Source: a virus. From it: a stretch of 64,000 bases of DNA. Both the position numbers and the translations under genes were made by a program. Under the pieces are notes generated by a model. It made no database searches, was not told where the DNA came from, and saw only the letters and a list, made by a program, of their open reading frames with translations. The stretch's first letter is position 1. The number at the start of each line of letters is the position of its first letter. Where the stretch lies: the IMG/VR virus record IMGVR_UViG_3300031576_001126, positions 1 to 64,000 of that record. One strand, written 5' to 3'. This document shows positions 42,010 through 60,400 of the stretch, piece by piece.

Positions 42010-45000
42010 ATGGCGGATGTTAGTATACAGGCGAATGAAGCCTTTTTAAATTTCTCAGACTTGGAAGGAGATATAAGCTCTCAAAAGTTTTCTATTACAC
42101 CTAATTTGTGGGTCGGACAAGTTTTTTTGTCAAGAACTGATGAATTAGACAAGATTTTTTTCCTTTGCGACAATACGGAAGCTTTAGAAGTTGAACTTTA
42201 TACAGCTTTAGTGAGCGGCGGAGGACAAGTGTTTACCCCCGACTTTCTACTCGCTTCCGTTTCTCATCCAGAAAATGGGGCAAGTCCATTTCAAGATATT
42301 TCTGTTGGGAATCAAAGTAATTCTGGTGGAATTTGGAGAAAAATAACATTTGATACGCCAATTTCTCTTGTTGAGGGCGCATTTTATATAATAGTTTTTA
42401 AAACAACAAGCACATCTAAAAGTCCAACAATTTTCTGGACAGCAAATTATAGACAATCAATAAACCCAATAATCACCGCATCCAATGATGCTGGTGCTAC
42501 ATGGTCAAATGACAATATTGAAACAATAACGGCAGGAAATACACAAGCCGGAGCGGTTTGTTTCGGATACGTTGGAAAAGAAGTTGATACAATTACTTAT
42601 TTGGACTCTGGAACGGTCACAATAGGAGGAACAGTCTCTTCAAGAAGAGGATATTCTGTTTTTCTATATGTTGAAAATTTAGATCCATTAAGCACAACTG
42701 TTGGAATTAACTTTTCGCAATTACCTCCTTCTGATCCAATAAATGGAACCAGCGAAGAAACCGATCAGGCCATGATGAGATGGTATTTTTTTGAAGAAGG
42801 CATTTTGCCAGTTTCTGCTGATTTTGAACCAGTTTTATTCAAAACAAATGTACAAGCAAAATTAGATATTAATGCTGAATTTGTGTTGTATATCCAACCA
42901 GATAGAATCTCGCCCTTGGCCGATACATATTATCCTGAAAGTGAAATAAACACATATGCAAATCCGATAGGGTTGATTCCTATATATAGCAGCACAAAAG
43001 AATTCATAGATTTTGATACTCCTTCCAATGCCTCTGATGAAAACGTCAATATGACTGCATCAACTGATGTAACTGATAGATTTGGAATTCAAAACTGGGC
43101 TCATTTAAAAAACAAAGCTAAACTTGAAACTTCGGGTAATCAAAGGCTGGCTTCTAGTTCTCAAAATCCAAGTTATTTTGATTTTTCAACAGAAAATCCA
43201 AGCAAAGATGTCGAAATTATAAAAACAATAACTCTAGATGGAACATTAGATGGAATAGAAAATGAAGAAGATGTAACAAGAGGATTTAATAGATCTGAAT
43301 TTTTAAAAAACAAATATATATTTTTTTCAAAAAAAGCAGAACAGGGTTATATTTCTTCTCCGTCATATCCAACTACTCCTGGCAAACTTTTGGCTTATGT
43401 TGCCGATAGTGATTTGATAAATTGGGAAAGAAAAACAATATCCGTGCTGGATTCTTCTCCCTCGACTCTTGGTTTGACTTTTGGAGATACAGCTTCAACA
43501 TATATTATTGGAGTTTATGACTCTGTTGTGGTCGCTATGCAAGGTGTTGAAACATTATTTGTTTTATTTCAAACCATATCTTTTTCGACAATTGGATCGG
43601 CAACATTCCCCTCTGGATTCCATATCGGATATTATCAGGGCGATTTTAGTGAAAGCGATATTCAATTTCAATTAATCAATCATGAACTTACAGATGTTCC
43701 AAATCTTGCCGACGTTAATTTTTCAAAGTTTACAGTAAACAATATTGATGAACAAAAATCAAGATTTATATTTCCAAATAATTCGGAAATTTTATATTTT
43801 TCGGCATCTAATGCTTCTGCTATATATGGTCTTGGAATATGGAAAATAAATCTTACTGATAGTTTATCTTCAATTTACGAAGCGGAGAGATTAAAAGTAA
43901 ATTCAGATACATCTATAGAACAAACGGGTATTTCCGACGAAAAAGACAAACAAATAACATTTGTTCTTTACGATGGAAATACAACTTATCTTGGGATTAG
44001 AACTAGTATTTCATACACATTTAGTTCGGTAAATGTCCCTACGATTGGTTCAAGTTATTTTGCAAGAGTTTATAGAACTGATGATTTTACAACATTCGAA
44101 CAATTGCTTGGCGGAGAAGCTTATAATTCGGCTTCTGCCGCCAATTTTCCATCCTGGCTTTCTGGAATTCATAGCGCACAGGATTATGATCCAACAAACG
44201 AAGGTGTTGTTTGGCCTCAGGTCGGAGAAGATTTTATTCCAAGCAACGAAGTCAAATTCATGCATAAAGTTGGAAACATATTGCATGTCTGGACTAATTG
44301 CTCTGCCTTTACTTCTGCGAATACTCCAATACATGTTGCCATAGATATTGTTTCAAAATCGACCAAAGTATTAAGATTGTTCCCAATAGAAGATGAAGCC
44401 GATTCCAGTTACGGAACAATTCCCAAAGTTTCAGATCTTGAGTTATATCCAAGAAGCAAAGCGTTAAGATGGATCGAGGGTGGTTCGGTAAATGGCAATC
44501 ACATTTTTATTTATGGAGCAGAATCATTAACATCATCTCTTGAACCCGCCACAATGAGCGCCTCATTGGATACTTTTGATTATGTCGCTGATCATGTCTT
44601 TAAATCTGATGATTTTAAAACAAGATGGTTGATTTATGATGATAGAACTATAAATGATGCTTTTGAAAAATATAATAGCTTGTCTGATTTTATAGGAAAT
44701 GCTGGAATCTCATCCATTTTATTTGAAGGAACTGGAAATGATGATATAAATATTGGTGGGACATATAGCGGAACAACATTTGACGAAAGATATTTGATTG
44801 AAGTCGAAAATAAAGGTTTGGTTGAATCCTTCACTGCCGGGGTTGGGATAGGTAACGGTCCTCTTGATGATTTTAATGCCAGCGGAACACCAACGGCCAC
44901 ATCTCAAAAAGAATTTATTGTTGAAATAGATAGAATTGCAGAAGTTGGAACAGGAACAGTAGCTAATGCCGGAGTTGGATCTCTAAATGATCCAAGCGCA

Positions 45001-48000
45001 GGATTTGCCGGATCTGGATCCAATGATGCTCAATTTACAACATTATTGTTGACACCTCTCTCTCCCAAAGCCATTGGCGTTGAAATAACATCTCTTGCTG
45101 CAGCAGACGTTTTCACTGGGTCTGGACTTAATGATTTGACGGCGCAAGCATCTTTGAATCCCGGATTAACATCTCAAGAAGAATTCAAGGTTGAAATAGA
45201 TAGCGCAGGATTAATTCCAAATAATACGGGACTTACGGCCTCTGCAAGTCCTGCTCCGACTCAGCAAAAGGATTATCATGTTGAAATAGTCGAGGATGCT
45301 GGAACAGAAATATTTTTAGGTTCAGGGCAGGATGATTTAAATGCAACTGTAACTTCACCATCAGAAAGCTATACTTATCAAATAGAAATAGAAAAATTAG
45401 CTTATGAAGATCAATTTGATCCAGCTATTATTACATCTGTTGTCGGTGATGATTTGGAAGCTTTTGGCAATTCAACAGAAGGATATCTCTATCAAGTAGA
45501 AATCGTCAGAAAAGCCATGGATGTAGAAACTGTAACTGGAACATTTTTGGATGACTTCCAAGTCACAAGACAAGTTGTTTTTAATGGAACTGGAACCAAT
45601 GATTTTGAAATAGTAGAAAGTTTAAGTCAAGATGGAATAGAATATAACTATGATATTTTAATAGAAATAGATGGACTTACATCATACAAATTATCAACTG
45701 ATGGAGGAGCAACTTTTGCCAGCGCATTAAATCCAATTGTAGCCAACACTCCATTTAATGTTGCTAGTTCTGGCTGGCGTGGACAATTCACGGTTGGATC
45801 TGGCTATGTTGTTGGTGATAAATGGTCTTTTCAAACAGTAGCAAATGTTTCGGCTGTTTACAAAGTTGAAATTGATAGTATTGGTTTGGATCCTGCTCCT
45901 GACACAAGTCCAGCAAATGGGGGTATTGATGATTTATCGGCGTCAACATCTGGTGGTGGGCCTTTGGATCAATTTTTATATGAAGTTGAAATAACAGATC
46001 AATCAGCAAGGAATGTGAGTTTTTCAAATCCCAGAATAGCCACAAATGAAGATGGAATATTTACGGCGAACCAAAACTACGATCCATCAACTAGCGCCGG
46101 TGCTTTGATAAAAGCCCTTGGAAATATACCAGAGAATAGGGATTTTGACGATCTTCCATTCGGATCCGATGCAATAGCCTATAGAACAGAAATAGACGGC
46201 AAAGCCCTAGATGCGTCCGTTTATGGATCTTATTTATATACTATTTCAAGAAACATTGTATCAAATTCAATATTTAAAATAATAAACACGTCTCACTTGG
46301 ACAATATACCGTCTCCATTGTCGACAACAAATGTGTCTGTGGATGGTATTGATTTTGTTGTATCTGGAAATTATGCTTATATAATATCAACATCTCTTGG
46401 AGATAATTCTTTAGAGATATACGATGTTTCTGACAAAACTTCTCCAATGTTATTATCAACATTGGATCTCGGAATATTTGTAAGTTCGGTCATTTCTATA
46501 ATTGGAGATACTGTTTATTTAGTGTCTAATGTTGTCCCCTCTCTCCCAAATTCAAGTTCTATAAATTTAATAGTTATAAATGTTGGGAATCCATTAAACC
46601 CATACATAAGAAGTGTGACAAGATCAACCGGAGGAGGAAGCGCTTCTGCCCTTTTTTCATCAAAACCTTTGCCATTAAGAGAGATGGTTTATCTTTCTCA
46701 ATCAAGCACAGCCTCGTTTTTTATTGTTAATGACAAAGATATTCCTCTAAATATAGGCCCAACGGACAACACTTTCGATGGTGGAAGTGGACAGACCGGC
46801 ATAGAGGCTTTAGATGACAGACTTTATGTTGCAAGCAGCAACAATAGAAAAGTTTTTGTATATAACGATCTCTCTTCCATGGAGTCCTTTGTTAGTTATG
46901 TTTTGCTTTCTGGTGGACCATTTTTTGAAGGAGAAATGATTGTAAAAACTTCATCGACTCCTACGGCCGGTGCTAATGCTACAATATTAACCGTAGTTGC
47001 ACCTTTTCCAACATCAGGTGAATTAAAATTAGGAAATGCATCACAATTAACTGGGATAACCATAGCTCCAAGTTCACAGTTTATATCAGGAGATACAATT
47101 TTTGGGGTTGAAAGTGGTGCTACTGCGACATTATCCTCAGGATTAACATTTAAAAACAAAGATGCTTCTGGTGCAAATCAGACTTCTACTGTTGGATTTA
47201 GAAAGGCAGCAACGATAACAACCTTTGGATTGAACCCAAATAATGTTCATCCTTTTAATTTTCTTATAAAGTCCAGTGAAGCAATCATTCTTAGCTCGCC
47301 GCCCATAACCATTGATTCGTTTGAAAATTCTACAGAATTTACATTTACTGTCTCTGGAACAACGGCAACAATATCTGGAAACATTACAGCACAAATTTTA
47401 AATGGATCTACTGTTAAATTTTACAATTTAACTGGCGGATCTGCCAATATTCTATTTGTAACATACAGAACTGTGCGCTCTGTCACCTATAATTCTGGTC
47501 CAAACACTACGACATTTACAATTTCTTCTATTTTAAGCGATAGAACTGGAGGAAAATGCTTTAAAATTGTAAATTATACGTTGCTTGCAGTTTCTTTGAC
47601 TGGAACAAATGCGGGTGTTGAAATTTACGATATGACAAATATCATAAATTTGGATGCATCTTTAAATCCATTAATATATCCATCACAAATGCTTGCAAGA
47701 ATTCCATTGTCAGATTTATCAGGATCTCCAAATTTCATATCAAATAGAGGCGATATTTTATATATATCCACAAGTGCCGGAGTGGATATATTTGAAATAT
47801 CAAGATCTTCCATAGTTCATAGTCATGAAAATCTTGGACATCTTATTGCTAAAAAAATAAACTCAACATCCGCCGGATCAACAATTGGAAGACTTGCCGT
47901 TTCTCCGATAAGTATATCTAATAATGTTGAATTTATAGGAAGGGTTGGACCAGTTTCCTTTACTCCTGTTTCCCTGGCGTCATCTGCTGGAAACAATATT

Positions 48001-51000
48001 CTACAAGCCATATCTGTGGATGGGAGATTGTCATTATCTTCTATTTCTGGATTTAATGCTGGAGATACAATAACTGGCTTGACATCTGGAGCCACGGCTA
48101 TAGTTTTCGCCTCTACAATTGGTTCGACGGCATATGGAAATCTTAATGGGAAATTTATACTTGGAGAAACAATTTCAAGTTCGGGAGGAGGCTCGGCTTC
48201 AAATTTTGGGTTATCAAATCCAGAACTACTAAGTATGAAGTCTGGAAAATACATTATAAAAGCAACATCAAGCACACAATATGTTTACTCTACAGATGGT
48301 GGAAAAACATTTACCACAACGCCAATTTTAATGTTAACATCCTTTGCGGGAATTGGATCAACTGGAGTTAGTATCAGGTTCGAGAGCACAACAACTCATG
48401 TCGCCGGAGATATTTGGGAATTCGAGGTTGGTCCAAATGGAATTTTCGATTACAAGGTTGAGATAGATAGTCTGTGGAATGATTCTTTGATTTTCACTGG
48501 ATCTGGATTGGATGATCTTAAAGTTTTTGGAGATCCGACCAATAATATTGATGTCGAAATAACAATAGATGGAACAGCGGAACAATTCGGATATGGTTAT
48601 GGGTTTGGATTGGGTGGAGACTTTTTCAACATATTCGGTTTTGCCGGCCCAGATTATGGTTATGGCGGAGGATCTTTCGAATATGATTATGCATATTCTT
48701 ATGATTATGGACTAGGATACGAGTATGGATATGGATATCCATTTGAAAACAACGCCACATCAACGGACACATTCTCTTATGTTGCAACAGTAAATAGCAT
48801 AACTATAGCATCTGGTTTTCAAATACCAATAACAGAAGATTTACAAAACATAACAAATGGAATACAAATAGAGTTTGGAAGCAAAGGCAAATTTAGCGAA
48901 GACTATCTCTTCACGTTATTCGGTTCTGCATCTCCGAGTGATGGATTCCAAATAATAAAATTGGATTCTATATATTCTGATTTAACATCTGGAGCAATAG
49001 TAGAAACACAATCTGTAGAAGATGCTGTTACTTTAGGACAAGTTAGTATTGCCTGCGATGAAAACTTAATGATAATAGGCAATCAAACTACTCCGTCTGT
49101 TTATATTTACAACACTAGAGATCCAGAGAATACCCATCTTGTTGGTGTGGAATCAGTAGTCCAGAATTGTGAAGACATTAGAATAAATGACAATTTACTA
49201 TTTATCGGTGGAAATTCTGGAGGAAACTCTCAATTTGTTATATATGATTTAACATATGCACAAGTTTCTGAACTTGTTGAGGACGATGTTGTTAATTTAT
49301 CGGATCCTTTTGTGAACATAAGAATAAAAGATGATTATGCTTTTGTTTTGGTAGATGACAGCGTTAATATAATTCTTCAATCTTGGGATATTTCCAATCC
49401 AATCAGTGTTCCAGTTTCGCCTGATGATACTTTGTCTTTGTCGTTTACGTCCGGCGGAGCGGATGCCTTGTCGTCTACAATTTCTGGAAATTATCATTAT
49501 TCTGCTGGGAATGTATCTGGAACATATTTTTTGAAAACTGTCGACATAACAAATCCAACGGCGCTTGTTTTATCAAGCTCTATATCTTTTGAATCTTCTT
49601 TTGTGGTTTTTTCCATAACATCTACTAATAATTTTTTATATATAACAGGACATAGGACAGTCCCAATTAATGCCGAAAGGCTTGTAAAGGTGTATGATAT
49701 TGTTTCTACTCCTGGAACTCCGGTTTTTACTGGAGAATATAAAGACTCCTTTGATGGTGCAGATTCTAGGATGACAGACATAAAAGCCAAAGATGGTATT
49801 GTGTATACAATGGCATTAAATAATAGCACTTCAGCATCATCCCTCTATATAATAGATGTTTCTCAACCAACAAATCCGTCATTATTAACAAGTATATTGG
49901 TTGCTGATTACACTGTTTTATTAAATCTATGCACATTAACAAGAACGCAGGGGCATACTTATGGGGACAAATGGAATTTTTCATCCAGAGACACATTTAG
50001 ATGGACCGATGACGCAAGAAGACCAGTTACCATTTGGAACGAAGAAGAAGTCGAGATAAATTCTGGAATTCAGAACATAGACAATTTAACCGCAGTGCTT
50101 TTCTTAGAAAAAACAGCAGGATATGCTCTTGGTGACACTTGGGATTTTTCAACTGTTGATACTTTTAGATGGGCGGCGGATATAACTGGAACGGTATTGG
50201 ATATTTCTGATTCAAGTTTTGAATGGCAAGAAGAAAAAATCAAAGCGCCATTTGAAGGCGGAGTTATTGATCTAGAATCCACTTCTCCATTTGACAATCC
50301 AAATGTTAAATTGGATTTCTTTGATTCCAACGGATATTTCATAGGAGATTTTATAGACTGGTCATACACTCAACAAGATAGTTATTCTGTAAGAATTTAT
50401 GAATTTAATCCACTTCTTGGTTTGGATGTAATTAGAACATCACCATTTTTGATTACTCCAACTACGCCAACTTTGCCAACAAATCAACTTGTTACCGCAG
50501 GATCTCCGGTGTCGGTTGCAATAACTTCTCCTGAAGCAACTGGCCCTGTTTTTGTGGAGTTTGATGGTGGAATAGGACACAAAACTGGAGATAAATGGAC
50601 ATTTACAACACTAGATACATTCAGATGGACAGATAAAGTTTTTCCTCAACTTATTGACAACGATCCTATCTCTGGTTTTGTTATTCAATGGAATGAAACA
50701 AAAGTTCCAATTATGACGGACGTATTAACTCTATATTCTTTAAATAATAATGTTGATATTACCATAGGTAATAAAAATGGCCATGATATAGGAGATGCTT
50801 GGATTTTTTCAACTGTTGATACTTTTAAATATTCGGTTGGGGATGATCTAGATGACTTGTCTCAAAAAAGAACCGATATTCCCATACCTCTCGAAGGAGG
50901 AATTTCAAGCATTGGAAAACAAGATACTGCCGCAAACGATAAAGATTCTGAAAATAATGTATTTATAGATTCAAACTATGATGTAGGACACAGTATTGGT

Positions 51001-54000
51001 GATAAATGGACATTTTCAACAACTGATGCCTTTAGATATATCATATTGAACTTTGGATATGGTTATGGATTTGGATCGGGGGCCGATTACTTTGATGTGT
51101 TTGGTCATCTTGGAGGATTTGTTGGATATGGATGGGATACTTCAAATCAAATAGGCACAAATAATCAATTATTTGAATCTGTTAATGCATCACAATATGG
51201 ATATGGAACGGGATATGAATATGGTTTTGGTCAATATGGATTCTCTTTTGACATAGACATTAATTGCATTCCAATAAAATTAACAAACAACATAGGCAAT
51301 GGTGTTGTTTTGGATTTTTCAAATCTTTCTGGGCACAGTGGAAATGAAATTTGGCAATTTTCATCATCAGACAAGTTTGTCTACAATATAGACGGTGGAT
51401 CTGATATTGGACCAATAAATGTGAGTGATGATTTTGTTGGTGTTGAAAACGGGATATCAATAAAATTCAACAGTCTTTCTGGATTTTCAGTTGGAGATTC
51501 TTGGGATTTTAAAACAATAGATACTTTTAAATATTATGAAGATAATGTTCTTATTGCTTCTAATATTAATTTATCAACATCGTCAATAAGTCTTGAGTCA
51601 TATATGAGCATATCGTTTGGAAACGTGACTGGCCATACTGTTGGCAATTATTGGACTTTTGATGCTTTAGATGAATTCACGTATGAAGTTAAAACTCTTC
51701 CAAACACCAAAACGCTTAACGATAGCATAGTTCTTGGATCAACCATTACTGGATCGACATCTGTTATAACTGGGATTTCTCAACCCGTTGGAGGAGGCTC
51801 AGATGTTGATGTTACATTTACAAATCAAAATGGACACACTCTTGGAGATAAATGGAGAATAGCAAATGTTGATTCTTATAAGTGGAGTGATAATAATGGC
51901 TTATCTTATACCATATTAAAAATAGCGACATCAACACCAAGTCTTCTTTCCAATGGAATTTCAGCAAGTTTCCCAACTCTTAACAATTTGAGAAATCACA
52001 ACGTTGGAGACAAATGGACTTTCGATGCTTTAGATGAAATTAAGTGGTCTAAAAATAATGGGTCCACATTTGAAGCAAGTGGATTGCCCGCCTTGATATC
52101 TCCGACAACATCGATAGGGAGTGGTCTTAATTTTTCATTTGATGCATCACTTGGACATGATATCGGGGATATATGGACTTTTCATCCAGTTCCAAAAATA
52201 GGGTATCAACTTGTGGAAGGGAAAGGTGTTTATCATGGAAAAACAATAGCGATATTTGATCACGATGAAACAGCAAGAATGTTTTCTGATTATCCCGCTC
52301 TTTCTCCGGATCTTAGTACTCTATCAACAAAACCAAGGGCTGGAATTTATTGTGGATTAGTTAACTATGCTGGAAGTTCTGTTGATAATATAGAATTTGA
52401 CAATTCAAATACCCCAGAATCAATAATAACAGCTAATGGTATTACTTATATAATATCTGAAAATGATGACGACGGAATAAGAGCGTTTAAAACCTATGGA
52501 ATAAAAGAACTTCCTCAAAATTGGGGTAAATCTTTTCAAACATCTTTGGGAGCGCAATCAACTATAACTGCTTTTGAAAAAATAGATATAGATAAAGCAA
52601 ATTTTGAACTCGCTGTCGGAGGGCCAAGCACTTTTGTAAATATCATAAGAAGAGGCCATGTTCAAAAAATAAATGGCGCTGTATTTATTTCTGAAATAAA
52701 AAAAGATTCATTATCTGCTGGATTTGATAATGTAAACTTAACATTTCCCAATAGATCTATTTTAGCTATATCTAATACGCTAAGAAGACCTCAAGAAATA
52801 ACAGCTTTCTTTAATATTAATTATCTTGGAGATATAGAGTCGGATGTCATAGGCGGTGTTCCTGTGGCCGATATTCTCTCAAATATAGAGGCTTCCAACA
52901 CGAATATTTTTATAAAATGCGCAGAAACCATAGAAAAATTATTTGAAGAACCAAAAGCCATATTAGATATTCCCCTGGCTCAAGATGTTGATGGAAGTAA
53001 TTCTACAAGATCTCTTATATCAAACACATTCCAAACAGATACTGAAAATAACTTCTTCAGAATAGAAAGTAACAATCTTCTATCGGATGATAGTGGAAGC
53101 GGAAATCCAAGAGAATTAGTTGATTTGAAAATAAAAGGATTAAGATTACACGATATAACTTTGCAAGGTCCTGAAGAAAATACAAACAATATGAAAGTTG
53201 CTGTTACTGGCATAATTGACGAAGGATCAGGAGTTCCTGAAAATGCTCTTCAAAACGGAGTTCATGTGCCTTCCAATGGGGAGATAATCGTTGATTTCAA
53301 CAAACCAATTTATTTAAGCGAAATCAGCTTTGACGTTGAATACTTTGGAACGGATTTAGCTGGCGCTAACCAATCTCAATTCTCGATATATGCTCTTACG
53401 ACATTCCACAATCAAAAATATGGAAATAATATAATTGACAAGAATGATTGGACTTTAATTGGATCTCCGGAGTTTGTAAGTCTTACTGGAAATCAAGATT
53501 CCATTTCAAAAGATGCCATAGGCATGTTTGTAAAGTCAGTAAGAATATTTCTTAATTCCGGGGTCACCCTGAAAGTAAAGAATCTGTCATTCAAAAGTTT
53601 TACTGGATCTTCTGATCAATTTTCTTCAAGTGGAGATGTGAAGTCCCCGGAAATGATAACAATAGATGATCCATTCGGAATCCTTGTTGCGGATATTTCC
53701 GGGATGCCGTCTTCTTTTGCAGTGTTAAATAGTGACGGCAGCAATATAACTATAGATTTAGAGGAAAACGTTCCTGTCACAAGAATTTCTCTCGGAGCAT
53801 ATTCCGGAAACGATCCAACAAAATCTTTGAAAATAGAATCATGGGACGGAGCCACTACATTGCTTGGGTCTCCGGTTTATGAAATACTTCATAATGCTCC
53901 AATAAGCGATTATGAACTTTCTGTTGTACAATGGACTCCAAGATTAAAAGATAAGTCCAGAGAAGTTCAAGTTATTTTCCTTTCTTCAGGGGATATAGAA

Positions 54001-54450
54001 AGCGAAAGTCAATTGAACGATTTAATTGAATCATATAACAAACCAGAAAACTCAGCGTTACTTGCAAATTCTGGACTTTCCGGTTTTGTTTTCAAGCCAA
54101 ATACTTTAAAGGATAGAACGCTTACAATAACTTCTTCAAAAGAATCTTCTGGGGAATTTGACGGTTCTATTTTTGTCAATGCACAGATGGATGAAGATGG
54201 ACCTTTTGCTTCTGATTTATCAGAGGAAACTTTAGGATTAATTGAGAAAAAGATTAATGTAGATTTCCCGCTTAGACAAATAAGAAAAATAAAAATTTCT
54301 TTGACTAGCCAAATGCCTAACAACGCTGGTGTCAGGGTAAACGGTCTCAAAATATACTCGCCAATTGTCGATGAAACAGGCACAGCGGAATTCCCAAGAA
54401 CTGGGGTTGCATGGACAATAAGACTCACAGCAAGCATTATAACGCAATAA
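42010..54450 (+). CDS. Giant tail appendage / adhesin (4146 aa) with nested split repeats, LVIVD-type propellers and two YG modules
   Basis: Continuous ORF with GGAG RBS. LEIYDVSDKTSP, LYIIDVSQPTNPSLL and similar LVIVD repeats; GH..GD.W.F repeats; paralogous N- and C-terminal scaffold shared with 54464-61219. Confidence 0.75.
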   Translation: MADVSIQANEAFLNFSDLEGDISSQKFSITPNLWVGQVFLSRTDELDKIFFLCDNTEALEVELYTALVSGGGQVFTPDFLLASVSHPENGASPFQDISVGNQSNSGGIWRKITFDTPISLVEGAFYIIVFKTTSTSKSPTIFWTANYRQSINPIITASNDAGATWSNDNIETITAGNTQAGAVCFGYVGKEVDTITYLDSGTVTIGGTVSSRRGYSVFLYVENLDPLSTTVGINFSQLPPSDPINGTSEETDQAMMRWYFFEEGILPVSADFEPVLFKTNVQAKLDINAEFVLYIQPDRISPLADTYYPESEINTYANPIGLIPIYSSTKEFIDFDTPSNASDENVNMTASTDVTDRFGIQNWAHLKNKAKLETSGNQRLASSSQNPSYFDFSTENPSKDVEIIKTITLDGTLDGIENEEDVTRGFNRSEFLKNKYIFFSKKAEQGYISSPSYPTTPGKLLAYVADSDLINWERKTISVLDSSPSTLGLTFGDTASTYIIGVYDSVVVAMQGVETLFVLFQTISFSTIGSATFPSGFHIGYYQGDFSESDIQFQLINHELTDVPNLADVNFSKFTVNNIDEQKSRFIFPNNSEILYFSASNASAIYGLGIWKINLTDSLSSIYEAERLKVNSDTSIEQTGISDEKDKQITFVLYDGNTTYLGIRTSISYTFSSVNVPTIGSSYFARVYRTDDFTTFEQLLGGEAYNSASAANFPSWLSGIHSAQDYDPTNEGVVWPQVGEDFIPSNEVKFMHKVGNILHVWTNCSAFTSANTPIHVAIDIVSKSTKVLRLFPIEDEADSSYGTIPKVSDLELYPRSKALRWIEGGSVNGNHIFIYGAESLTSSLEPATMSASLDTFDYVADHVFKSDDFKTRWLIYDDRTINDAFEKYNSLSDFIGNAGISSILFEGTGNDDINIGGTYSGTTFDERYLIEVENKGLVESFTAGVGIGNGPLDDFNASGTPTATSQKEFIVEIDRIAEVGTGTVANAGVGSLNDPSAGFAGSGSNDAQFTTLLLTPLSPKAIGVEITSLAAADVFTGSGLNDLTAQASLNPGLTSQEEFKVEIDSAGLIPNNTGLTASASPAPTQQKDYHVEIVEDAGTEIFLGSGQDDLNATVTSPSESYTYQIEIEKLAYEDQFDPAIITSVVGDDLEAFGNSTEGYLYQVEIVRKAMDVETVTGTFLDDFQVTRQVVFNGTGTNDFEIVESLSQDGIEYNYDILIEIDGLTSYKLSTDGGATFASALNPIVANTPFNVASSGWRGQFTVGSGYVVGDKWSFQTVANVSAVYKVEIDSIGLDPAPDTSPANGGIDDLSASTSGGGPLDQFLYEVEITDQSARNVSFSNPRIATNEDGIFTANQNYDPSTSAGALIKALGNIPENRDFDDLPFGSDAIAYRTEIDGKALDASVYGSYLYTISRNIVSNSIFKIINTSHLDNIPSPLSTTNVSVDGIDFVVSGNYAYIISTSLGDNSLEIYDVSDKTSPMLLSTLDLGIFVSSVISIIGDTVYLVSNVVPSLPNSSSINLIVINVGNPLNPYIRSVTRSTGGGSASALFSSKPLPLREMVYLSQSSTASFFIVNDKDIPLNIGPTDNTFDGGSGQTGIEALDDRLYVASSNNRKVFVYNDLSSMESFVSYVLLSGGPFFEGEMIVKTSSTPTAGANATILTVVAPFPTSGELKLGNASQLTGITIAPSSQFISGDTIFGVESGATATLSSGLTFKNKDASGANQTSTVGFRKAATITTFGLNPNNVHPFNFLIKSSEAIILSSPPITIDSFENSTEFTFTVSGTTATISGNITAQILNGSTVKFYNLTGGSANILFVTYRTVRSVTYNSGPNTTTFTISSILSDRTGGKCFKIVNYTLLAVSLTGTNAGVEIYDMTNIINLDASLNPLIYPSQMLARIPLSDLSGSPNFISNRGDILYISTSAGVDIFEISRSSIVHSHENLGHLIAKKINSTSAGSTIGRLAVSPISISNNVEFIGRVGPVSFTPVSLASSAGNNILQAISVDGRLSLSSISGFNAGDTITGLTSGATAIVFASTIGSTAYGNLNGKFILGETISSSGGGSASNFGLSNPELLSMKSGKYIIKATSSTQYVYSTDGGKTFTTTPILMLTSFAGIGSTGVSIRFESTTTHVAGDIWEFEVGPNGIFDYKVEIDSLWNDSLIFTGSGLDDLKVFGDPTNNIDVEITIDGTAEQFGYGYGFGLGGDFFNIFGFAGPDYGYGGGSFEYDYAYSYDYGLGYEYGYGYPFENNATSTDTFSYVATVNSITIASGFQIPITEDLQNITNGIQIEFGSKGKFSEDYLFTLFGSASPSDGFQIIKLDSIYSDLTSGAIVETQSVEDAVTLGQVSIACDENLMIIGNQTTPSVYIYNTRDPENTHLVGVESVVQNCEDIRINDNLLFIGGNSGGNSQFVIYDLTYAQVSELVEDDVVNLSDPFVNIRIKDDYAFVLVDDSVNIILQSWDISNPISVPVSPDDTLSLSFTSGGADALSSTISGNYHYSAGNVSGTYFLKTVDITNPTALVLSSSISFESSFVVFSITSTNNFLYITGHRTVPINAERLVKVYDIVSTPGTPVFTGEYKDSFDGADSRMTDIKAKDGIVYTMALNNSTSASSLYIIDVSQPTNPSLLTSILVADYTVLLNLCTLTRTQGHTYGDKWNFSSRDTFRWTDDARRPVTIWNEEEVEINSGIQNIDNLTAVLFLEKTAGYALGDTWDFSTVDTFRWAADITGTVLDISDSSFEWQEEKIKAPFEGGVIDLESTSPFDNPNVKLDFFDSNGYFIGDFIDWSYTQQDSYSVRIYEFNPLLGLDVIRTSPFLITPTTPTLPTNQLVTAGSPVSVAITSPEATGPVFVEFDGGIGHKTGDKWTFTTLDTFRWTDKVFPQLIDNDPISGFVIQWNETKVPIMTDVLTLYSLNNNVDITIGNKNGHDIGDAWIFSTVDTFKYSVGDDLDDLSQKRTDIPIPLEGGISSIGKQDTAANDKDSENNVFIDSNYDVGHSIGDKWTFSTTDAFRYIILNFGYGYGFGSGADYFDVFGHLGGFVGYGWDTSNQIGTNNQLFESVNASQYGYGTGYEYGFGQYGFSFDIDINCIPIKLTNNIGNGVVLDFSNLSGHSGNEIWQFSSSDKFVYNIDGGSDIGPINVSDDFVGVENGISIKFNSLSGFSVGDSWDFKTIDTFKYYEDNVLIASNINLSTSSISLESYMSISFGNVTGHTVGNYWTFDALDEFTYEVKTLPNTKTLNDSIVLGSTITGSTSVITGISQPVGGGSDVDVTFTNQNGHTLGDKWRIANVDSYKWSDNNGLSYTILKIATSTPSLLSNGISASFPTLNNLRNHNVGDKWTFDALDEIKWSKNNGSTFEASGLPALISPTTSIGSGLNFSFDASLGHDIGDIWTFHPVPKIGYQLVEGKGVYHGKTIAIFDHDETARMFSDYPALSPDLSTLSTKPRAGIYCGLVNYAGSSVDNIEFDNSNTPESIITANGITYIISENDDDGIRAFKTYGIKELPQNWGKSFQTSLGAQSTITAFEKIDIDKANFELAVGGPSTFVNIIRRGHVQKINGAVFISEIKKDSLSAGFDNVNLTFPNRSILAISNTLRRPQEITAFFNINYLGDIESDVIGGVPVADILSNIEASNTNIFIKCAETIEKLFEEPKAILDIPLAQDVDGSNSTRSLISNTFQTDTENNFFRIESNNLLSDDSGSGNPRELVDLKIKGLRLHDITLQGPEENTNNMKVAVTGIIDEGSGVPENALQNGVHVPSNGEIIVDFNKPIYLSEISFDVEYFGTDLAGANQSQFSIYALTTFHNQKYGNNIIDKNDWTLIGSPEFVSLTGNQDSISKDAIGMFVKSVRIFLNSGVTLKVKNLSFKSFTGSSDQFSSSGDVKSPEMITIDDPFGILVADISGMPSSFAVLNSDGSNITIDLEENVPVTRISLGAYSGNDPTKSLKIESWDGATTLLGSPVYEILHNAPISDYELSVVQWTPRLKDKSREVQVIFLSSGDIESESQLNDLIESYNKPENSALLANSGLSGFVFKPNTLKDRTLTITSSKESSGEFDGSIFVNAQMDEDGPFASDLSEETLGLIEKKINVDFPLRQIRKIKISLTSQMPNNAGVRVNGLKIYSPIVDETGTAEFPRTGVAWTIRLTASIITQ

Positions 54451-54463
54451 GTGGAGAGAATTA

Positions 54464-57400
54464 ATGTCCACTCGCACGGATTTTAAAATAAAAACAAGTG
54501 AATCATTTTTTAATTTGCCGGACACTTCTAATGTTGCTGTGCAGAAATTCACAATAACTAATGAAAATTGGATAGGTCAAGTTTTTATTTCAAAAAGTTC
54601 AGAACTTCAAAAATTCTTTTTCCTTTGCAACGACACCGAAGGTCTTGAAGTTTTTATTCACAAAGCTGATGTTTCTACTTCAAACGGAAGAACAATTTAT
54701 ACTCCAAATCAAATTGTTGTTTCTATCATTCATGAAGTTGATGGCCTAAGTCCATTTCAAGTTATTGAAAAAGACAATCCAGATAGTGTTGCCTCGTGGA
54801 ATTATCCGAATTGGCTTGCAACACCGCAAACAGCGAATGATCAGGAAGAACCCTACATTGTTGTTTTCAAGACAACATCAGATAAAAAACCCGAAGTTTA
54901 TTACACTTTTGAATACAGACAACCTATATTTCCTCAAATAATAGGTTGGAACGGAGAAGCATGGTCGAATAACAACATATCCACAAAAACAGTGAACAAA
55001 ACACAAATAGGCGCAGTCTGTTTTGGATTTATAGGAAACAATTTAAGAGAACATGATCTTGACTTGGGATCTTTGATTGTTGGAGGAAGAGATACGGCAA
55101 GAAGAGGATACCCGGTATTTATTTTTGCTGAAAATATTTCTTCTCAAAACGACAATATTATTTTGGATTTCTCAACAGTTTCTCCTGAAGATTCTTCTCT
55201 TGGAACTCCTGAAGAAACTTCAAAATCCATGATGAAATGGTATAGGTTCAATAGAAACACATTGCCGACTTCTAAGAATTTAGAATTGCTTGATGCTGAG
55301 TTTAAGACGGAATTAAATGCTGAAAACAATTTTGTGTTATTTATACATCCCGATAAACTGTCTCCATTTGCAGACACCTATCTTCCACCGTCCGACATAG
55401 AAATGATATCTAATAAAATAGGAGTTGTTCCAATTTATGATAGTGGAGAGACCAACAATAGATTTGCAACCGATTTTACAAATAGATTTCAGAAAAAATT
55501 CTGGGCTAAGTTTTCTAAAGATACTATTCTTGATCCAATAATATCTACTATAACAACTTCGGAAAAAGATCTTGATGAGAAAAGTTTAAGTGGTTTTTTG
55601 AATGGTAACTTCGCAAATGGAACAACCTCATGGCTAACTTCAGGTTCCACTATTGTCTCGGAAACTGGGACTGGAAATTTTTTGACTGGGAACGGAATAA
55701 CAAATTCAAAAAGTATAAAATTCAACCATCCTTCAAGTGGCGCATCTTTTGGTTCTCAATCTCATCCATCGTTTTTTCAATCCATAACTACTCAAAATTT
55801 GGAATCTCAAATTACTGGCAATAGTGTTTATGATTCAATAACACCGGCCGATGAATTGGAAAATCCAAGCGATCCAGATGGAGATGGGACAAGTGGAAGA
55901 TTGCATTATGTTTATTATGTCAAACGCTCAATGACGGGGTTTGCGGCAACAGAAAACGGCATAACAAGATTAGCTTTTGTGAAACAAAATGGCCAAAGTT
56001 ACATAGAAATAGTCCCAAATTATGAAGAAATATTACCTGAGGGAGAAACGGTTCCAACAACTATATCGCCTTTGGATGGCTATGAATATAGTGACACTCA
56101 GGGATGGGTCAGAATTAGTGGATATTTCAATCTAAGGACAGGCGGATCATATACAATTGATTTTTCTCCGACAGGGGCATATATAAATGGAACTTCCTAT
56201 TTTGTTATAAGGCCAACTATTCCAGCTTCAACTCAAGAAGTTTTTGTTGATGAAGTTTCTTTGACTTATTTTGATGCAACGCAGATAACGCAAACAGATG
56301 ATATAATAACAGGCAGAAACGCTTCTGGTAGCAGAAATCCAGACTATATAGATTTTTCTTTCGAAAATCCTAATGGAGAAGTTGATATTGTAAAAAAATT
56401 AACTCTATCTTCAGACATATTGGATGGGTCTTTAACCGAAAAAGAATTGGTTAGGGGTTTTGATAAGGTTGTGTTTTACAAAGGCAAATATGTTTTTTTC
56501 TCAAAAAAAACAATTGACGGACTGTTGGTTTCAAGTCCAGCTTCTATTCCAGCTACTCCGGGCAAGCTTGTTGTTTATGTTGCCGATAGCGATCTGACAA
56601 ATTTTCAAAAGAAAACAGTTCAACTTTTGGATTCTTCGCCATCAACACTTGGAATTGGCACTGGTGGAACAGAAAAAACTTATATCATAGGATTGAACGA
56701 TACAATTGTCACGAATGTATCTGGTGAAGAAACAATATTGTTTTTAACAAAAACTTTTGTAGCTTTGGGTGTCTCTCCAATTTCATATCCATCCCAATTT
56801 GACATTGGATATTATCAAGGAGATCTCTCTGAATCAACAATAAATATTCAACTAATAAATCACGAATCCACGGGGGCTCTAGACCTATCGTCAACACCAA
56901 TTGATAGATATTTTGGATCTTTTGCTCATCTTGACTCAAGAATACTTTCCGATGATAAAAATAATGCAATTTTCATATCTCCAAATAATTTAAATAATAT
57001 TTATATTTCTGCAAGTTCTGATAATTGTTCTCAAAATAAATTTGTTGGATTGGGATTGTGGAAAATAGATCTTAATGATAGTTTGTCGTCAATTTATGAA
57101 GCCGAAAGATTAAAGCCAAATTTTGAAATTCAAGCTATAGATATAAATCTAGGAACATTAAACACTGCTCAAACTGGCATATCTTCATTTAGAGATTCCA
57201 GAATAACATTTGTTTTATACGACGGGAATACAACTTATCTCGGAGTCAGAGGAAGAACTCTTTGGACGCAACCATTGTCGGTCAATGTTCTTTCCGAACA
57301 AAATACATGCAGAATATATAGAACAGTTGATTTTGTTACATTTGAACAATTGCTGGGGAACGAACCAATTTATTCTTCTGGCAATTTGCCATCTTGGCTT

Positions 57401-60400
57401 GCTGAATTTAGTTCAATAGAGGATCTGTTCACAACATCTGGGCTTGGAGACGAGATAATAAATAATGATGTAAAATTCATGTATAAAGTAGGAAATATAT
57501 TGCATGCATGGATATGTCCTCATTTTTTTGATGAAAAAAACACACCAATGCATATTGGCATAGATACAAATAACAAACTTATTTCGGTTTTAAGAAAATT
57601 TCCAATAGAAAATGTTGGCGATTCTAATTATGAGATATCTCCAAAAGTTTCAGATCTTGAGCTATACCCAAGAAGCAAAGCGTTAAGATGGATCGAAGAC
57701 GGTTCAGTAAATGGAAACTATATTTATATCTGTGGGGCCGATACATTATCCTCAAACACTGAAAATCCAACTCAAGATATAATAAATATAAATGATAATG
57801 TTCCTGTTTGCCATAGTTATCCAGATTCTTATTCTGCAAGATGGATAATGTATGATGACAGAATAATAAACAAACCTTTTGTATCTGATATAAACAATAG
57901 AAAATTTTTTATGTTTATCCCAAACTCAACATCCTTAATTGCGATTGGTGTCGGAAGAGATTCCGCAGAATTGGTAAAGGATTATCCCAGTATAACGTCA
58001 ACGTATGCCGACTTAGCTGTGAAATTAAATAGCGATGTTGGATATTACAAAGAGAATCCTCCAGTAAATAAAATTAAAATACTAGATATGAGAGACGGAA
58101 CAAATATAACTGTTATTAATAATACTGGAATAAGTGGAGGTGAAAATTTTGGAACAATAAACAATGGAATTTTTGTAACAAACAACAATGTTTATATAAC
58201 AAAGGGATCTGATTTTAGAATATATACTTCGGCTTCCATTTTAAACCCAAATTCTTCAGTTTTTGGATCCGTTTCCATTTCATCTCCTTTTGGGAAAAAG
58301 TTTTTTGGAACAGTTTCTGTATTTGAGCCAAACATTGCAGTAGGAATAATTGTAGATCTAGCAACCGGATTCCTGTCTAGTTTGGTTTTGATAAACATAT
58401 CAAATAAAGCATTCCCTTCGGCAATTCAATATTTGCCAAATCTTCCCTTTGGTGAAAGTTATTTATCTTTAGATTTTAGCGATACAGGAAACACATTGTA
58501 TGCCGCCGGGAGAAATGTTAGTGGAAATTTTATAGATATTTTTGATGTAAGTTCATCAATGTTGAATTTTGTAACGAGATTACAGACGGGCTCAACTTTT
58601 TTCTTTACAGACAGAATAAAAGTTCAAAGAGGAAAAAACAAAATAATATACAACATTTCTAATGTTGTTTTCGTATACGATATCTCTGCCGAATTAAATC
58701 CTATTCTTATGGATTCAATTGGTTTTTTAGCAAACATAGCTTTTATATCTTTCTTAAACGGAGGTCATCCTGAATCTGACGAAATTGATGATATAATATT
58801 CGTGGTATTAACAAATGGCGAAATCAATGCCTTGGATATCTCGAATATATCTATTGATGGTATTGTTACTTTGTATAATAAAAAAATATTAAATAGCGTT
58901 GTTCCTTTTACTCATTTTTCTGACATAGGAAGTTCTATAAAAATCAGAGAAGGTTTTGAAACGATAAGAGGCAAGGGCATATACAATGGAAAAACGGTTA
59001 TAAAATTTGATCATGATGAAAAATCATCAACTTTTAAAAAATATCCAGCTTTATTCCCTGACGATTCCACCGTAGAGACTAAACCAAGAGTCGGCATGTA
59101 TTGTGGATTGGTTTCTTATGGTTCTGATGAAAACATAGGAATAGAAAATGACACAAACAACATTATATCAAAATTATTTTCTTATGGTGGTATAAATTAT
59201 ATTTCTGTTAATAATGAAAATAGTGGATTTAATTTATATAAAACATATGGCATTAAAGAACTTCCACAAAATTGGGGCAATTCTTATAGAGACATAGAGG
59301 GAAACTTGGCCGACATAAACACCTATTATTCTCTTGATATAGATAAAGCTGCATTTGAAAATGTTTTTTTTGGCAAAGAAACATTTAAAAATATATCTAG
59401 AATATCGGAAACAATAAATTCAAACAATACATATTTTATTTCAGAATTAAAAACAAACAATTTATCATCCAATTTTATTGACATAGATACGGATAATCCA
59501 GAAAGAAATCTTGTATTTTTAAATCTAAATTACAAAAAACCACAACACATATCTATGTTTTATAATCTAAATTATTTTGGAGATGGTTCTGACATATTGG
59601 ATTTGAGTGACACAAACACATCTGAGACAGAATTAACGTTTACTTCCGCACAAACATTGGAAAAACTTTTTACAGATCCGGATCAAATTATAACCATACC
59701 TTTGGCTCAGGAAGTTTCCAATGATCCATCAAATAGGACTTTTATAAGAAAAACTTTACCAGCAGATATCTCATCTAATTTTTTCAGAATAGAATCAAGC
59801 TCAGTTTATGATAATGAGGCTAATGGTATAAATGTTTATATAAAATCTCTTTCTGTGAATGATGTTTCTCTTAGTTTCCCCGATTCTGAGACAGCAATTA
59901 AAACCGTGGTGGTTAATGGAATTGTATACGGAACATCACAAAGTCCAGAAAATATTATAGAAAATGACGCTATTTTGCCTCCAGATGGGGAAATAATAAT
60001 AGACTTCACTAAACCAATATATATAAATGAAATAAATTTCAAAGCCAAATATTCAAGCCCAGACTTTAAAGGTGTTGGAAGAGCAGAGTTTGAATTTTTA
60101 GCAATAACAAATATTGAAAAGGAATCAACGGGCAATGACTTGGTGTCTTCTAAAGACTGGATAAGTCTTGGAAATTCTGTATTTTATGGAAACCTAAATA
60201 ACGAAAGCGAAATATCAAAGAAAAACATATTGTCATACATACAATCTATTAGAATAATTTTAAAGTCTTCAATATCTATAACAATCAAAGAATTATCGAT
60301 AAGGGGCTTTTCTTCTGGATTATTAAATCAATTTGTTTCGTCTGGAGATATCAAATCCCAAGAATTAATTTTAGTAGATGATATTTTCGGTTTGCTTGAG

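Follow-up and report, generated by a model that had tools for sequence, protein, structure and literature searches.

In tail-sheath proteins with a 'Russian doll' organisation (T4 gp18, diffocin CD1363, pyocin and type VI secretion sheaths), the segments of an outer domain flank an inner domain; the chain ends lie at the base and added domains point outward, and two to four levels of different folds are described (PMC6088184, citing Aksyuk et al. 2009, 2011). Flagellin and the hook-associated proteins (FliC, FliD, FlgK, FlgL) likewise form an out-and-back hairpin in which outer domains are inserted in inner ones, and in the flagellin of Geovibrio thiophilus, with D0 to D5 stacked, D4 and D5 show self-insertion of a related fold at two levels. 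Of these systems, Geovibrio flagellin comes closest as a precedent for the protein described here, P0001, the 4146-amino-acid (aa) product of a single open reading frame (ORF) at 42010-54450 (+) in a 64,000-nucleotide (nt) stretch of viral DNA (positions 1 to 64,000 of IMG/VR record IMGVR_UViG_3300031576_001126; the window, below). We consider it quite probable that P0001 contains about twelve levels of recursive self-insertion of one domain, that its halves pair in mirror order, and that they form a two-armed rod rising from one slot in a virion-protein chassis.

The outer levels of P0001, like those of the tail sheaths, would consist of N- and C-terminal segments around an inserted inner domain, but a sheath protein is a compact subunit of a helical polymer, whereas P0001 would repeat one fold twelve times as a rod. 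No Pfam or PHROG match to the sheath family was found in P0001, and only the organisational principle is common to the two. With the flagellar family the likeness is one of fold, seen in a modelled domain of the relative P0029 that resembles D2 of FlgL and FlgK; the difference is that the same fold would occupy twelve levels in P0001 as against two, in a phage virion module and not in a flagellar filament. P0001 has no Pfam flagellin match and none of the D0/D1 helices of flagellin, and a profile of its repeated unit searched against all PDB sequences gave a best expect value (E) of 0.24, with no flagellar protein among the matches and hence no sequence relation to solved chains. P0001 belongs to neither the flagellar nor the sheath family.

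Two further designs build stalks from repeats. In the stalk of streptococcal antigen I/II the chain runs out and back through the A and P regions, the repeats of the two halves intertwine, a binding domain sits at the tip, and the ends lie near the anchor; there, in a bacterial surface protein, an alpha-helix and a polyproline helix are wound together, whereas P0001 would be made of nested beta-sandwiches. Tandem-repeat stalks, such as the 'periscope' proteins and the immunoglobulin-like (Ig) arrays on phage fibres, are spacers built of autonomous repeats whose length is set by repeat number. The number of levels varies among nest homologues too (five in P0029 and nine in P0152), but tandem units are added singly at one place, whereas a unit of a nest needs two distant segments, so that a nest can grow or shrink only if both arms change in step. 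An earlier reading of the window, made from the letters alone (the original prediction), regarded the design as undescribed. Nested organisation itself is known at two to four levels in sheaths and flagellins; twelve levels of one domain are without a match in the literature found, where, within incomplete coverage, no deep homotypic nest in a phage protein is described.

Motif scans, and hidden Markov models (HMMs) built from the units, resolve the repeated domain of P0001 into two kinds of half. The N-type unit, about 32 aa long, reads F.G.G.DD, some 15 residues and Y.VEI; the C-type unit, about 50 aa long, reads DTF.W ... GH..GD.W.F; each is detected in P0001 with an HMM E-value between 1e-8 and 1e-19. 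Twelve N-halves lack a following C-half and twelve C-halves are open, eleven of them in tandem, and there are two intact copies in addition. A repeated domain had been predicted in about 11 copies, with motifs that all lie in this one ORF; the repetition is borne out, and the count becomes twelve split levels plus two intact copies, D1 and, probably, Dx.

The outgoing arm, levels 1 to 9, spans 44716-46005 (+; HMM E 1e-10 to 1e-13) and comprises N1 (aa 903-935), N2 (940-976), N4 (999-1030), N5 (1036-1068), N6 (1069-1098), N7 (1101-1131), N8 (1140-1170), N9 (1172-1188 plus 1277-1292) and N10 (1300-1332). The N-type HMM matches at aa 904-1332 correspond to N1, N2, N4 to N8, N10 and the N-half of the intact copy that interrupts N9. 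That copy, D1 (aa 1189-1276; 45574-45837, +), is contiguous, lies between the two strands of N9 and is kept in the orthologues; at nt 45577-45834 it covers the entire 83-position profile of the intact unit (E 1.4e-26), in agreement with the single intact copy placed by the original prediction near 45568-45840. Two more N-type matches lie farther on, at aa 1373-1399 for N11 (aa 1375-1398; 46132-46203, +; E 1.9e-8), the N-half assigned to level 10, and at aa 2161-2190 for N12 (aa 2160-2188; 48487-48573, +; E 3e-11), the N-half of the innermost level 12. The predicted list of N-halves was mostly sound, including the run that starts back to back at 44716 and the innermost copy from 48487. It left out N11, and it counted as an N-half the loop 'N3a' with the motif GVGSLND (aa 979-998; 44944-45003, +), which is not a unit, being missing in both orthologues.

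Matches of the C type lie at aa 1223-1275 (in the intact copy D1), 2088-2139 and 2252-2304, followed by eleven back to back at 2660-3392. These eleven, which had been predicted to run from 49990, form the returning arm (aa 2661-3391; 49990-52182, +; HMM E 1e-13 to 5e-19): C1 (2661-2714), C2 (2717-2785), C3 (2789-2866), C4 (2869-2934), C5 (2937-3003), C6 (3006-3117), C7 (3120-3167), C8 (3170-3217), C9 (3220-3284), C10 (3287-3338) and C11 (3341-3391). No DNA-level tandem repeat was found in 44000-53000, so the repeats are old and conserved at the protein level only. The two orthologues, P0002 and P0003, are syntenic with P0001, are 48% and 40% identical to it across the C array, and have an identical layout and level number. 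No homologue of the C array shorter than 2280 aa was found at E <= 1e-8, and a tblastn search of the C array against phage GenBank records gave no match.

The two halves together make up a domain that exists in its own right. Among 1.84 billion representative proteins, 2351 match a profile built for the intact unit (alignment A2) at E <= 1e-3, of which 587 reach E <= 1e-10, and the majority of the 2351 matches span profile positions 1-82 as a single contiguous stretch of about 81 aa. From the matches listed, 210 intact copies were extracted from 134 proteins. No Pfam entry was found for the unit. Its carriers match PHROGs for baseplate, tail, major tail and head-closure proteins, and these matches, with the tail-gene neighbourhood of P0001, place the domain in phage structural proteins. 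The N+C unit of about 81 aa is a real, widespread and unannotated phage virion domain, and since its contiguous form is the canonical one, the separation of the halves in P0001 is the derived state. In an early mixed alignment by MAFFT, several C units had their start (DTF.W ... V.I) placed over N units (DDL ... Y.VEI); such an overlap may reflect a duplicated hairpin inside the domain, or chance.

Structure prediction indicates that the two arms of P0001 pair with each other. We ran ESMFold2 on two chains, N1 to N5 (aa 898-1070) and C8 to C11 (aa 3168-3396), each with its two orthologues. The pair scored 0.70, against 0.00 for the best of three controls; of 80 solved complexes 58 attain the mark used for this score, as do 2 of 110 mismatched pairs, and these counts are a rough guide here, as our own alignments were used. 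The runs agreed on at least 88% of contacts, with a partner predicted local distance difference test score (pLDDT) of at least 80. The contacts of lowest error join N5 to C8 (aa 1059-1062, the second strand of N5, with 3173-3176 and 3214-3217, the first and last strands of C8), N4 to C9 (aa 1024-1026 with 3223 and 3282) and N1 to C11 (aa 905 and 928-932 with 3347 and 3387-3391). N2 and C10 both lie within the interface and would, by exclusion, pair with each other; the sole part of the N chain outside it is the loop at aa 979-997, the rejected 'N3a'. The order of the predicted contacts is thus the mirror order that had been anticipated. Memory of a solved complex is unlikely to explain the result, since the PDB holds no sequence relative, although the fold itself is present there.

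The same runs bear on whether the halves could fold by themselves. With an unrelated partner the N array had a pLDDT of 27, and in the complex 81; for the C array the values were 40-41 and 86. Judged by model confidence, each arm appears to depend on the other, as the nested model of the original prediction requires, and an array of autonomous domains set like beads on a string is not what the models suggest. The predicted complex supports binding of the N arm to the C arm.

Comparison with a neighbouring gene locates the point of insertion. The gene immediately downstream (54464-61219, +) encodes a paralogue of 2251 aa that shares with P0001 both an N-terminal chassis (aa 1 to ~897; 42010-44700, +) and a C-terminal chassis (aa 3398-4146; 52201-54447, +). 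By BLASTP, identity is 39% over aa 3 to ~380 and 47% over aa 379-923; the C-terminal chassis is 39% identical over 771 columns (E 6e-160), in an alignment that starts exactly at the end of C11. In the slot that holds the nest in P0001, the paralogue has a different cassette of about 350 aa. Because both flanks are shared, the nest starts and ends at a single chassis point, as expected of an insertion that runs out and back, and the idea that both termini lie at the base is supported, the region common to the two proteins being aa 1 to ~920 and 3398-4146. An HMM scan of all ORFs in the window, the paralogue included, found no N or C units outside P0001, and in a profile search P0001 was the only gene with the domain across the whole 140-kb record.

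A model of a compact nest was obtained from the relative P0029 (587 aa), which AlphaFold2 folded from a 20-row alignment (A4) with a mean pLDDT of 77.9 and values of 70-97 in the nest region (about 50-510). When this model was compared with PDB chains by VIA-align, single PDB domains of about 85 residues fell on four concentric ranges, as read from the alignments. The innermost range, N5+C1, matched FlgL 5ziz_A (P0029 206-301; Z 9.7, root-mean-square deviation (rmsd) 2.6 A, 84 residues aligned) and FlgK 4ut1 (208-300; Z 8.0, rmsd 2.7 A, 81 aligned). Outside it came N4+C2 with FliD 5h5t_B (163-352; Z 5.6, rmsd 3.0 A, 70 aligned), N3+C3 with Wzc 7nib_C (122-405; Z 5.3, rmsd 3.8 A, 86 aligned) and N2+C4 with FliD 9m6i_A (80-458; Z 5.5, rmsd 3.2 A, 74 aligned). 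With 70-88 residues aligned within spans of up to 379, the aligned residues must lie at both ends of each range. Z values of 5-6 are weak singly, and the weight lies in the concentric series and in the Z of 8-10 of the innermost domain. Read in this way, the P0029 model is a mirror-ordered nest.

The modelled innermost domain of P0029 has the D2-type beta-sandwich fold, a likeness at the level of fold and of this relative, not of P0001. The sandwich of FlgL D2 consists of the sheets b5-b12-b7-b8-b9 and b6-b11-b10, and its first two strands lie in separate sheets, each next to one of the last two (PMC6155364). A topology that splits the first two strands between sheets makes an isolated N-half an implausible fold. 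In the P0029 model, both arms have strands of 13-22 residues that begin where one unit closes and continue into its successor, and such strands, crossing level boundaries, would make a continuous two-armed beta rod and not beads on a string. The top Foldseek match of the model is the Geovibrio thiophilus flagellin (E 2.3e-6). The remaining global Foldseek matches, among them alphavirus E1 and birnavirus VP2, reach TM values of 0.04-0.13 and were discounted as long beta structures of a generic kind; BFVD matches are weak and include a tail-sheath model of Microcystis phage LMM01 (prob 0.98).

Nests with balanced halves occur in many other carriers of the domain that have no further relationship to one another. 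Half-models for these proteins were built from the 210 intact copies, units were called automatically, and the census covers the best 150 carriers. More than 12 carriers read NNCC; P0015 reads NNNCCC, P0029 has five N followed by five C, and P0152, which is 41% identical to P0029, has nine N followed by nine C. In the 1351-aa protein P0004, with 13 N and 13 C, an N-half plus an intact copy occurs six times in succession, and one more intact copy and six closing C-halves follow, so that its rod would bear a side domain at each level. Exactly balanced strings were found in 22 of the 33 proteins with adjacent N-halves, and the exceptions either have C units, which are detected better, in surplus or come from very short contigs, such as P0016 on a contig of 1952 nt. 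Co-variation of the numbers of the two halves, which the nested arrangement predicts, is thus seen in other carrier families (2/2, 3/3, 5/5, 9/9 and 13/13), and the orthologues of P0001 share one level number. In the nests of P0058 and P0093, a module of about 130 aa with the pattern ITISGT..YDG.Y stands at the centre, and in P0093 it is found inside a C-half as well, which shows that the N/C junction and the loops of C-halves take cargo in other families too.

These counts also bear on the possibility that the two arrays are unrelated, the N units forming a hairpin-repeat structure and the C units autonomous small domains, with an intact copy arising by chance. Short beta-repeat arrays are common in phage fibres, the automatic calls give an excess of C units in several proteins, and the MAFFT overlap of C-unit starts with N units hints at a common hairpin motif. 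The excess, however, is explained by the weak N model, which has 31 positions, and by genes cut at contig ends, as with P0016. Equal counts in the complete deep nests (3/3, 5/5, 9/9 and 13/13), the contiguous full-length form of most of the 2351 matches, with 210 intact copies among those listed, and the predicted disorder of each array alone all count against unrelated arrays, and we regard them as very improbable.

Four compact nests (P0029, P0032, P0047 and P0152), of which P0032 has two levels in 269 aa, constrain the path of the chain. Their successive halves are linked by 2-9 residues and the last N to the first C by 1-3 residues, and at the centre an N and a C adjoin without a break and are recognised by the profile as a single intact domain. 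This geometry has to be set against a different partnership, in which the N array of one chain zips onto the C array of another, giving an arm-exchanged dimer or trimer and an oligomeric fibre. Many phage fibres are oligomers; the two-chain prediction supports pairing between subunits equally, and with about 1300 residues parting the two arrays of P0001, linker length does not force the arms of one chain together. With a contiguous centre and such short linkers in the compact nests, however, an intramolecular hairpin is simplest; in the AlphaFold2 model of P0029 one chain forms the concentric domains, and the cassette swaps for one of about 350 aa at a single slot, as a self-contained insertion should. 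Exchange of arms between subunits is on this evidence improbable, and pairing within one chain is the reading we prefer.

An imprint of the pairing order can be sought in the sequences of the halves. In P0152, similarity matrices of the N-halves and the C-halves correspond under a mirror mapping (r 0.64, P 0.0004, 2 of 5000 permutations), whereas a colinear mapping gives r -0.16. Alternate levels of P0152 are alike on both arms, a pattern that fits duplication of two-level blocks in which both arms were copied together. Colinear pairing, of the first N with the first tandem C, would instead produce a parallel two-stranded stalk with the central ~1300 residues of P0001 as its return link. That central region is long enough that it could span the stalk, and the similarity matrices of P0029 favour colinear order (r 0.73), though with P 0.06 over five levels this is not significant. 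Against it stand the predicted N1-C11, N4-C9 and N5-C8 contacts, the concentric ranges of the P0029 model and the P0152 matrices, and the link of 1-3 residues between the last N and the first C of the compact nests rules out a parallel arrangement there; we find colinear pairing scarcely credible. The test has too few levels to inform in P0029, P0058 and P0005, and in P0004 a significant r of 0.56 chiefly separates split from intact copies and says little of order.

For the inner levels of P0001, mirror order is extended by counting and topology. Once N1/C11, N2/C10, N4/C9 and N5/C8 are paired, eight elements are left on the N side (N6 to N11, a lone strand and N12) and eight on the C side (C7 back to C1, then Ci), which suggests the pairing of levels 5 to 12; by the same count, the partner of N11 would be C2 and that of the lone strand C1. 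The lone second strand, FDYKVEID (aa 2143-2155; 48436-48474, +), had been noticed at about 48445 and is indeed present; it is a weak HMM match (aa 2145-2155; E 0.025-0.28) and is kept in the orthologues. It may be the N side of level 11, with its first strand lying before propeller 1, as N9 lies around D1. Between propeller 1 and this strand is Dx (aa 2057-2138; 48178-48423, +), whose C-half is clear (2088-2138, C-HMM E 8.7e-18) and whose N-half is degenerate; we read it as probably a second intact copy, its N-half being undetected and the family profile covering positions 27-81 only. Alternatively, N11 could pair with this C-half, Cx (aa 2088-2138), across propeller 1; that pairing would leave unequal numbers, 11 open N and 12 open C, and was set aside as less likely. 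Ci (aa 2250-2304; 48757-48921, +; HMM E 2.5e-17) is the C-half of level 12. A lone strand GHTYGDKWNF (aa 2645-2658; 49942-49983, +), a partial C-HMM match at positions 39-53 (E 0.011), is probably the true last strand of Ci, propeller 2 having been inserted before it; the original prediction likewise gave this strand to the innermost copy.

The inner levels carry several inserted modules. Module 1 (aa 1399-2056, 658 aa; 46204-48177, +) contains an LVIVD-type beta-propeller region and more small repeats: PF08309 (LVIVD repeat) gives a marginal match, best over aa 1448-1483, whose 21.8 bits (E 1.2e-4) just exceed the cutoff of 20.2, and the ESM Atlas gives weak propeller-family leads (score 0.81). 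Within it, at about 46900-48200 (+; aa ~1640-2060), are several short copies of the motif G(D/E)TI.G..SGATA.V, which may represent a small family of repeats in its own right, set between the blades of the propeller. Module 2 (aa 2305-2644; 48922-49941, +), placed at the tip, appears to be an LVIVD-type propeller too; the first ESM Atlas matches of aa 2305-2645 are LVIVD repeat clusters (score 0.95, 179 shared features), a lead and not a test, and in an AlphaFold2 model of the tip no other part has a pLDDT as high as its 55-77. Two modules rich in Tyr and Gly, with the pattern GYGYGFG...DFF..FG...YGYG, stand at separate sites of the nest. The first (aa 2189-2249; 48574-48756, +) is at the N/C junction of level 12 and has a further insert of about 230 aa in P0003; the second (aa ~3015-3075; 51052-51234, +) is inside C6, at level 6, and is kept in the orthologues. 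The original prediction displayed such modules at the distal tip, which agrees with the positions of the propellers and one Tyr/Gly-rich module and does not agree with those of D1 (level 8) and the module in C6, both on the side of the stalk.

Prediction and statistics, between them, show the unit map, the mirror pairing of levels 1 to 4, the dependence of the arms on each other and the balanced counts in other families. In the model we propose, a virion-module chassis (aa 1 to ~897 and 3398-4146) would carry, at one point, a cassette of about 2500 residues in which a beta-sandwich of about 81 residues, of the fold type of FlgL/FlgK D2, is inserted recursively in itself. Each level would consist of two strands from the outgoing arm, the N-half, and about five from the returning arm of the same chain, the C-half, in mirror order from N1/C11, N2/C10, N4/C9 and N5/C8 onward to N12/Ci. 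Two LVIVD-type propellers, a Tyr/Gly-rich module and the intact Dx would be cargo of the tip, and D1 and the second Tyr/Gly-rich module cargo of the side. The structure might serve as a spacer stalk, perhaps some tens of nanometres long, by which a loop of a virion protein holds host-binding modules away from the chassis. Nesting, and not tandem repetition, would be forced on such a stalk because neither end of the chassis is free for it, each being required elsewhere, as for the outer domains of flagellin.

Several points weigh against this reading. All of the structural evidence is prediction, and the two-chain run covers only levels 1 to 4 of P0001 and cannot separate pairing within a chain from pairing between chains. 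The P0029 model has a predicted template-modelling score of only 0.48, and the AlphaFold2 model of the tip of P0001 (aa 2057-2790, three-row alignment A7) is unusable, with a mean pLDDT of 45.7 and values of 30-50 in Dx. The balance of 12 and 12 halves in P0001 depends on three unproven readings, which take Dx for an intact copy, the strand at aa 2143-2155 for the N side of level 11 and the strand at aa 2645-2658 for a part of Ci. Finally, the similarity-matrix test on its 11 complete pairs gave r 0.26 (P 0.10), the units being too diverged, and the leaning of the P0029 matrices is, as noted, colinear.

By the CheckV estimate the record, a virus contig of 140 kb, is about 42% complete, and a very large phage genome is therefore probable. 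Upstream of the P0001 gene, a head-tail adaptor and a minor tail protein are matched, and a run of giant ORFs comes after them. Seven consecutive giant ORFs (1230, 1749, 1079, 1373, 1899, 4146 and 2251 aa) occupy 19196-61219 on the + strand; in scans against Pfam, the PHROGs or both, none had a confident match except that to LVIVD in the 4146-aa gene. Two orthologous contigs (L001 and L002) keep the pair formed by a P0001-type gene and its paralogue. Elsewhere in the window, a highly repetitive ORF of 1605 aa (2442-7259, -) has 12 separate stretches that match phrog_25468 (E 3e-129), a family of unknown function.

With twelve levels of one domain, P0001 would reach a new depth of nesting, compared with the two to four levels of the sheaths and the two-level same-fold precedent of Geovibrio, and would mark a new extreme of protein topology, with relatives of 2, 3, 5, 9 and 13 units. 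We lean slightly towards the more general view that recursive self-insertion of a beta-sandwich is a way in which phages build a rigid rod of adjustable length from a loop, with the chain ends in the chassis, its length set by matched duplications on the two arms and its folding proceeding from the inside out. If this is true, such rods would constitute a fibre class of their own, new beside trimeric fibres, coiled coils and tandem Ig arrays. The first N-half awaits its partner for about 2460 residues; because the outermost domain closes only then, folding from the innermost level outwards would be required, and the question arises of how the chain avoids misfolding. The nests would offer a natural model for the folding of an extreme non-local topology and, as rigid spacers insertable in a loop, a template for protein engineering. 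In evolution, a change of length needs matched duplications on distant arms, and the nine-level P0152 bears such a trace. The analysis also brings to light a widespread and unannotated structural domain of phages. For phage biology, it suggests that a loop of a virion protein can be made into a long probe with exchangeable binding modules.

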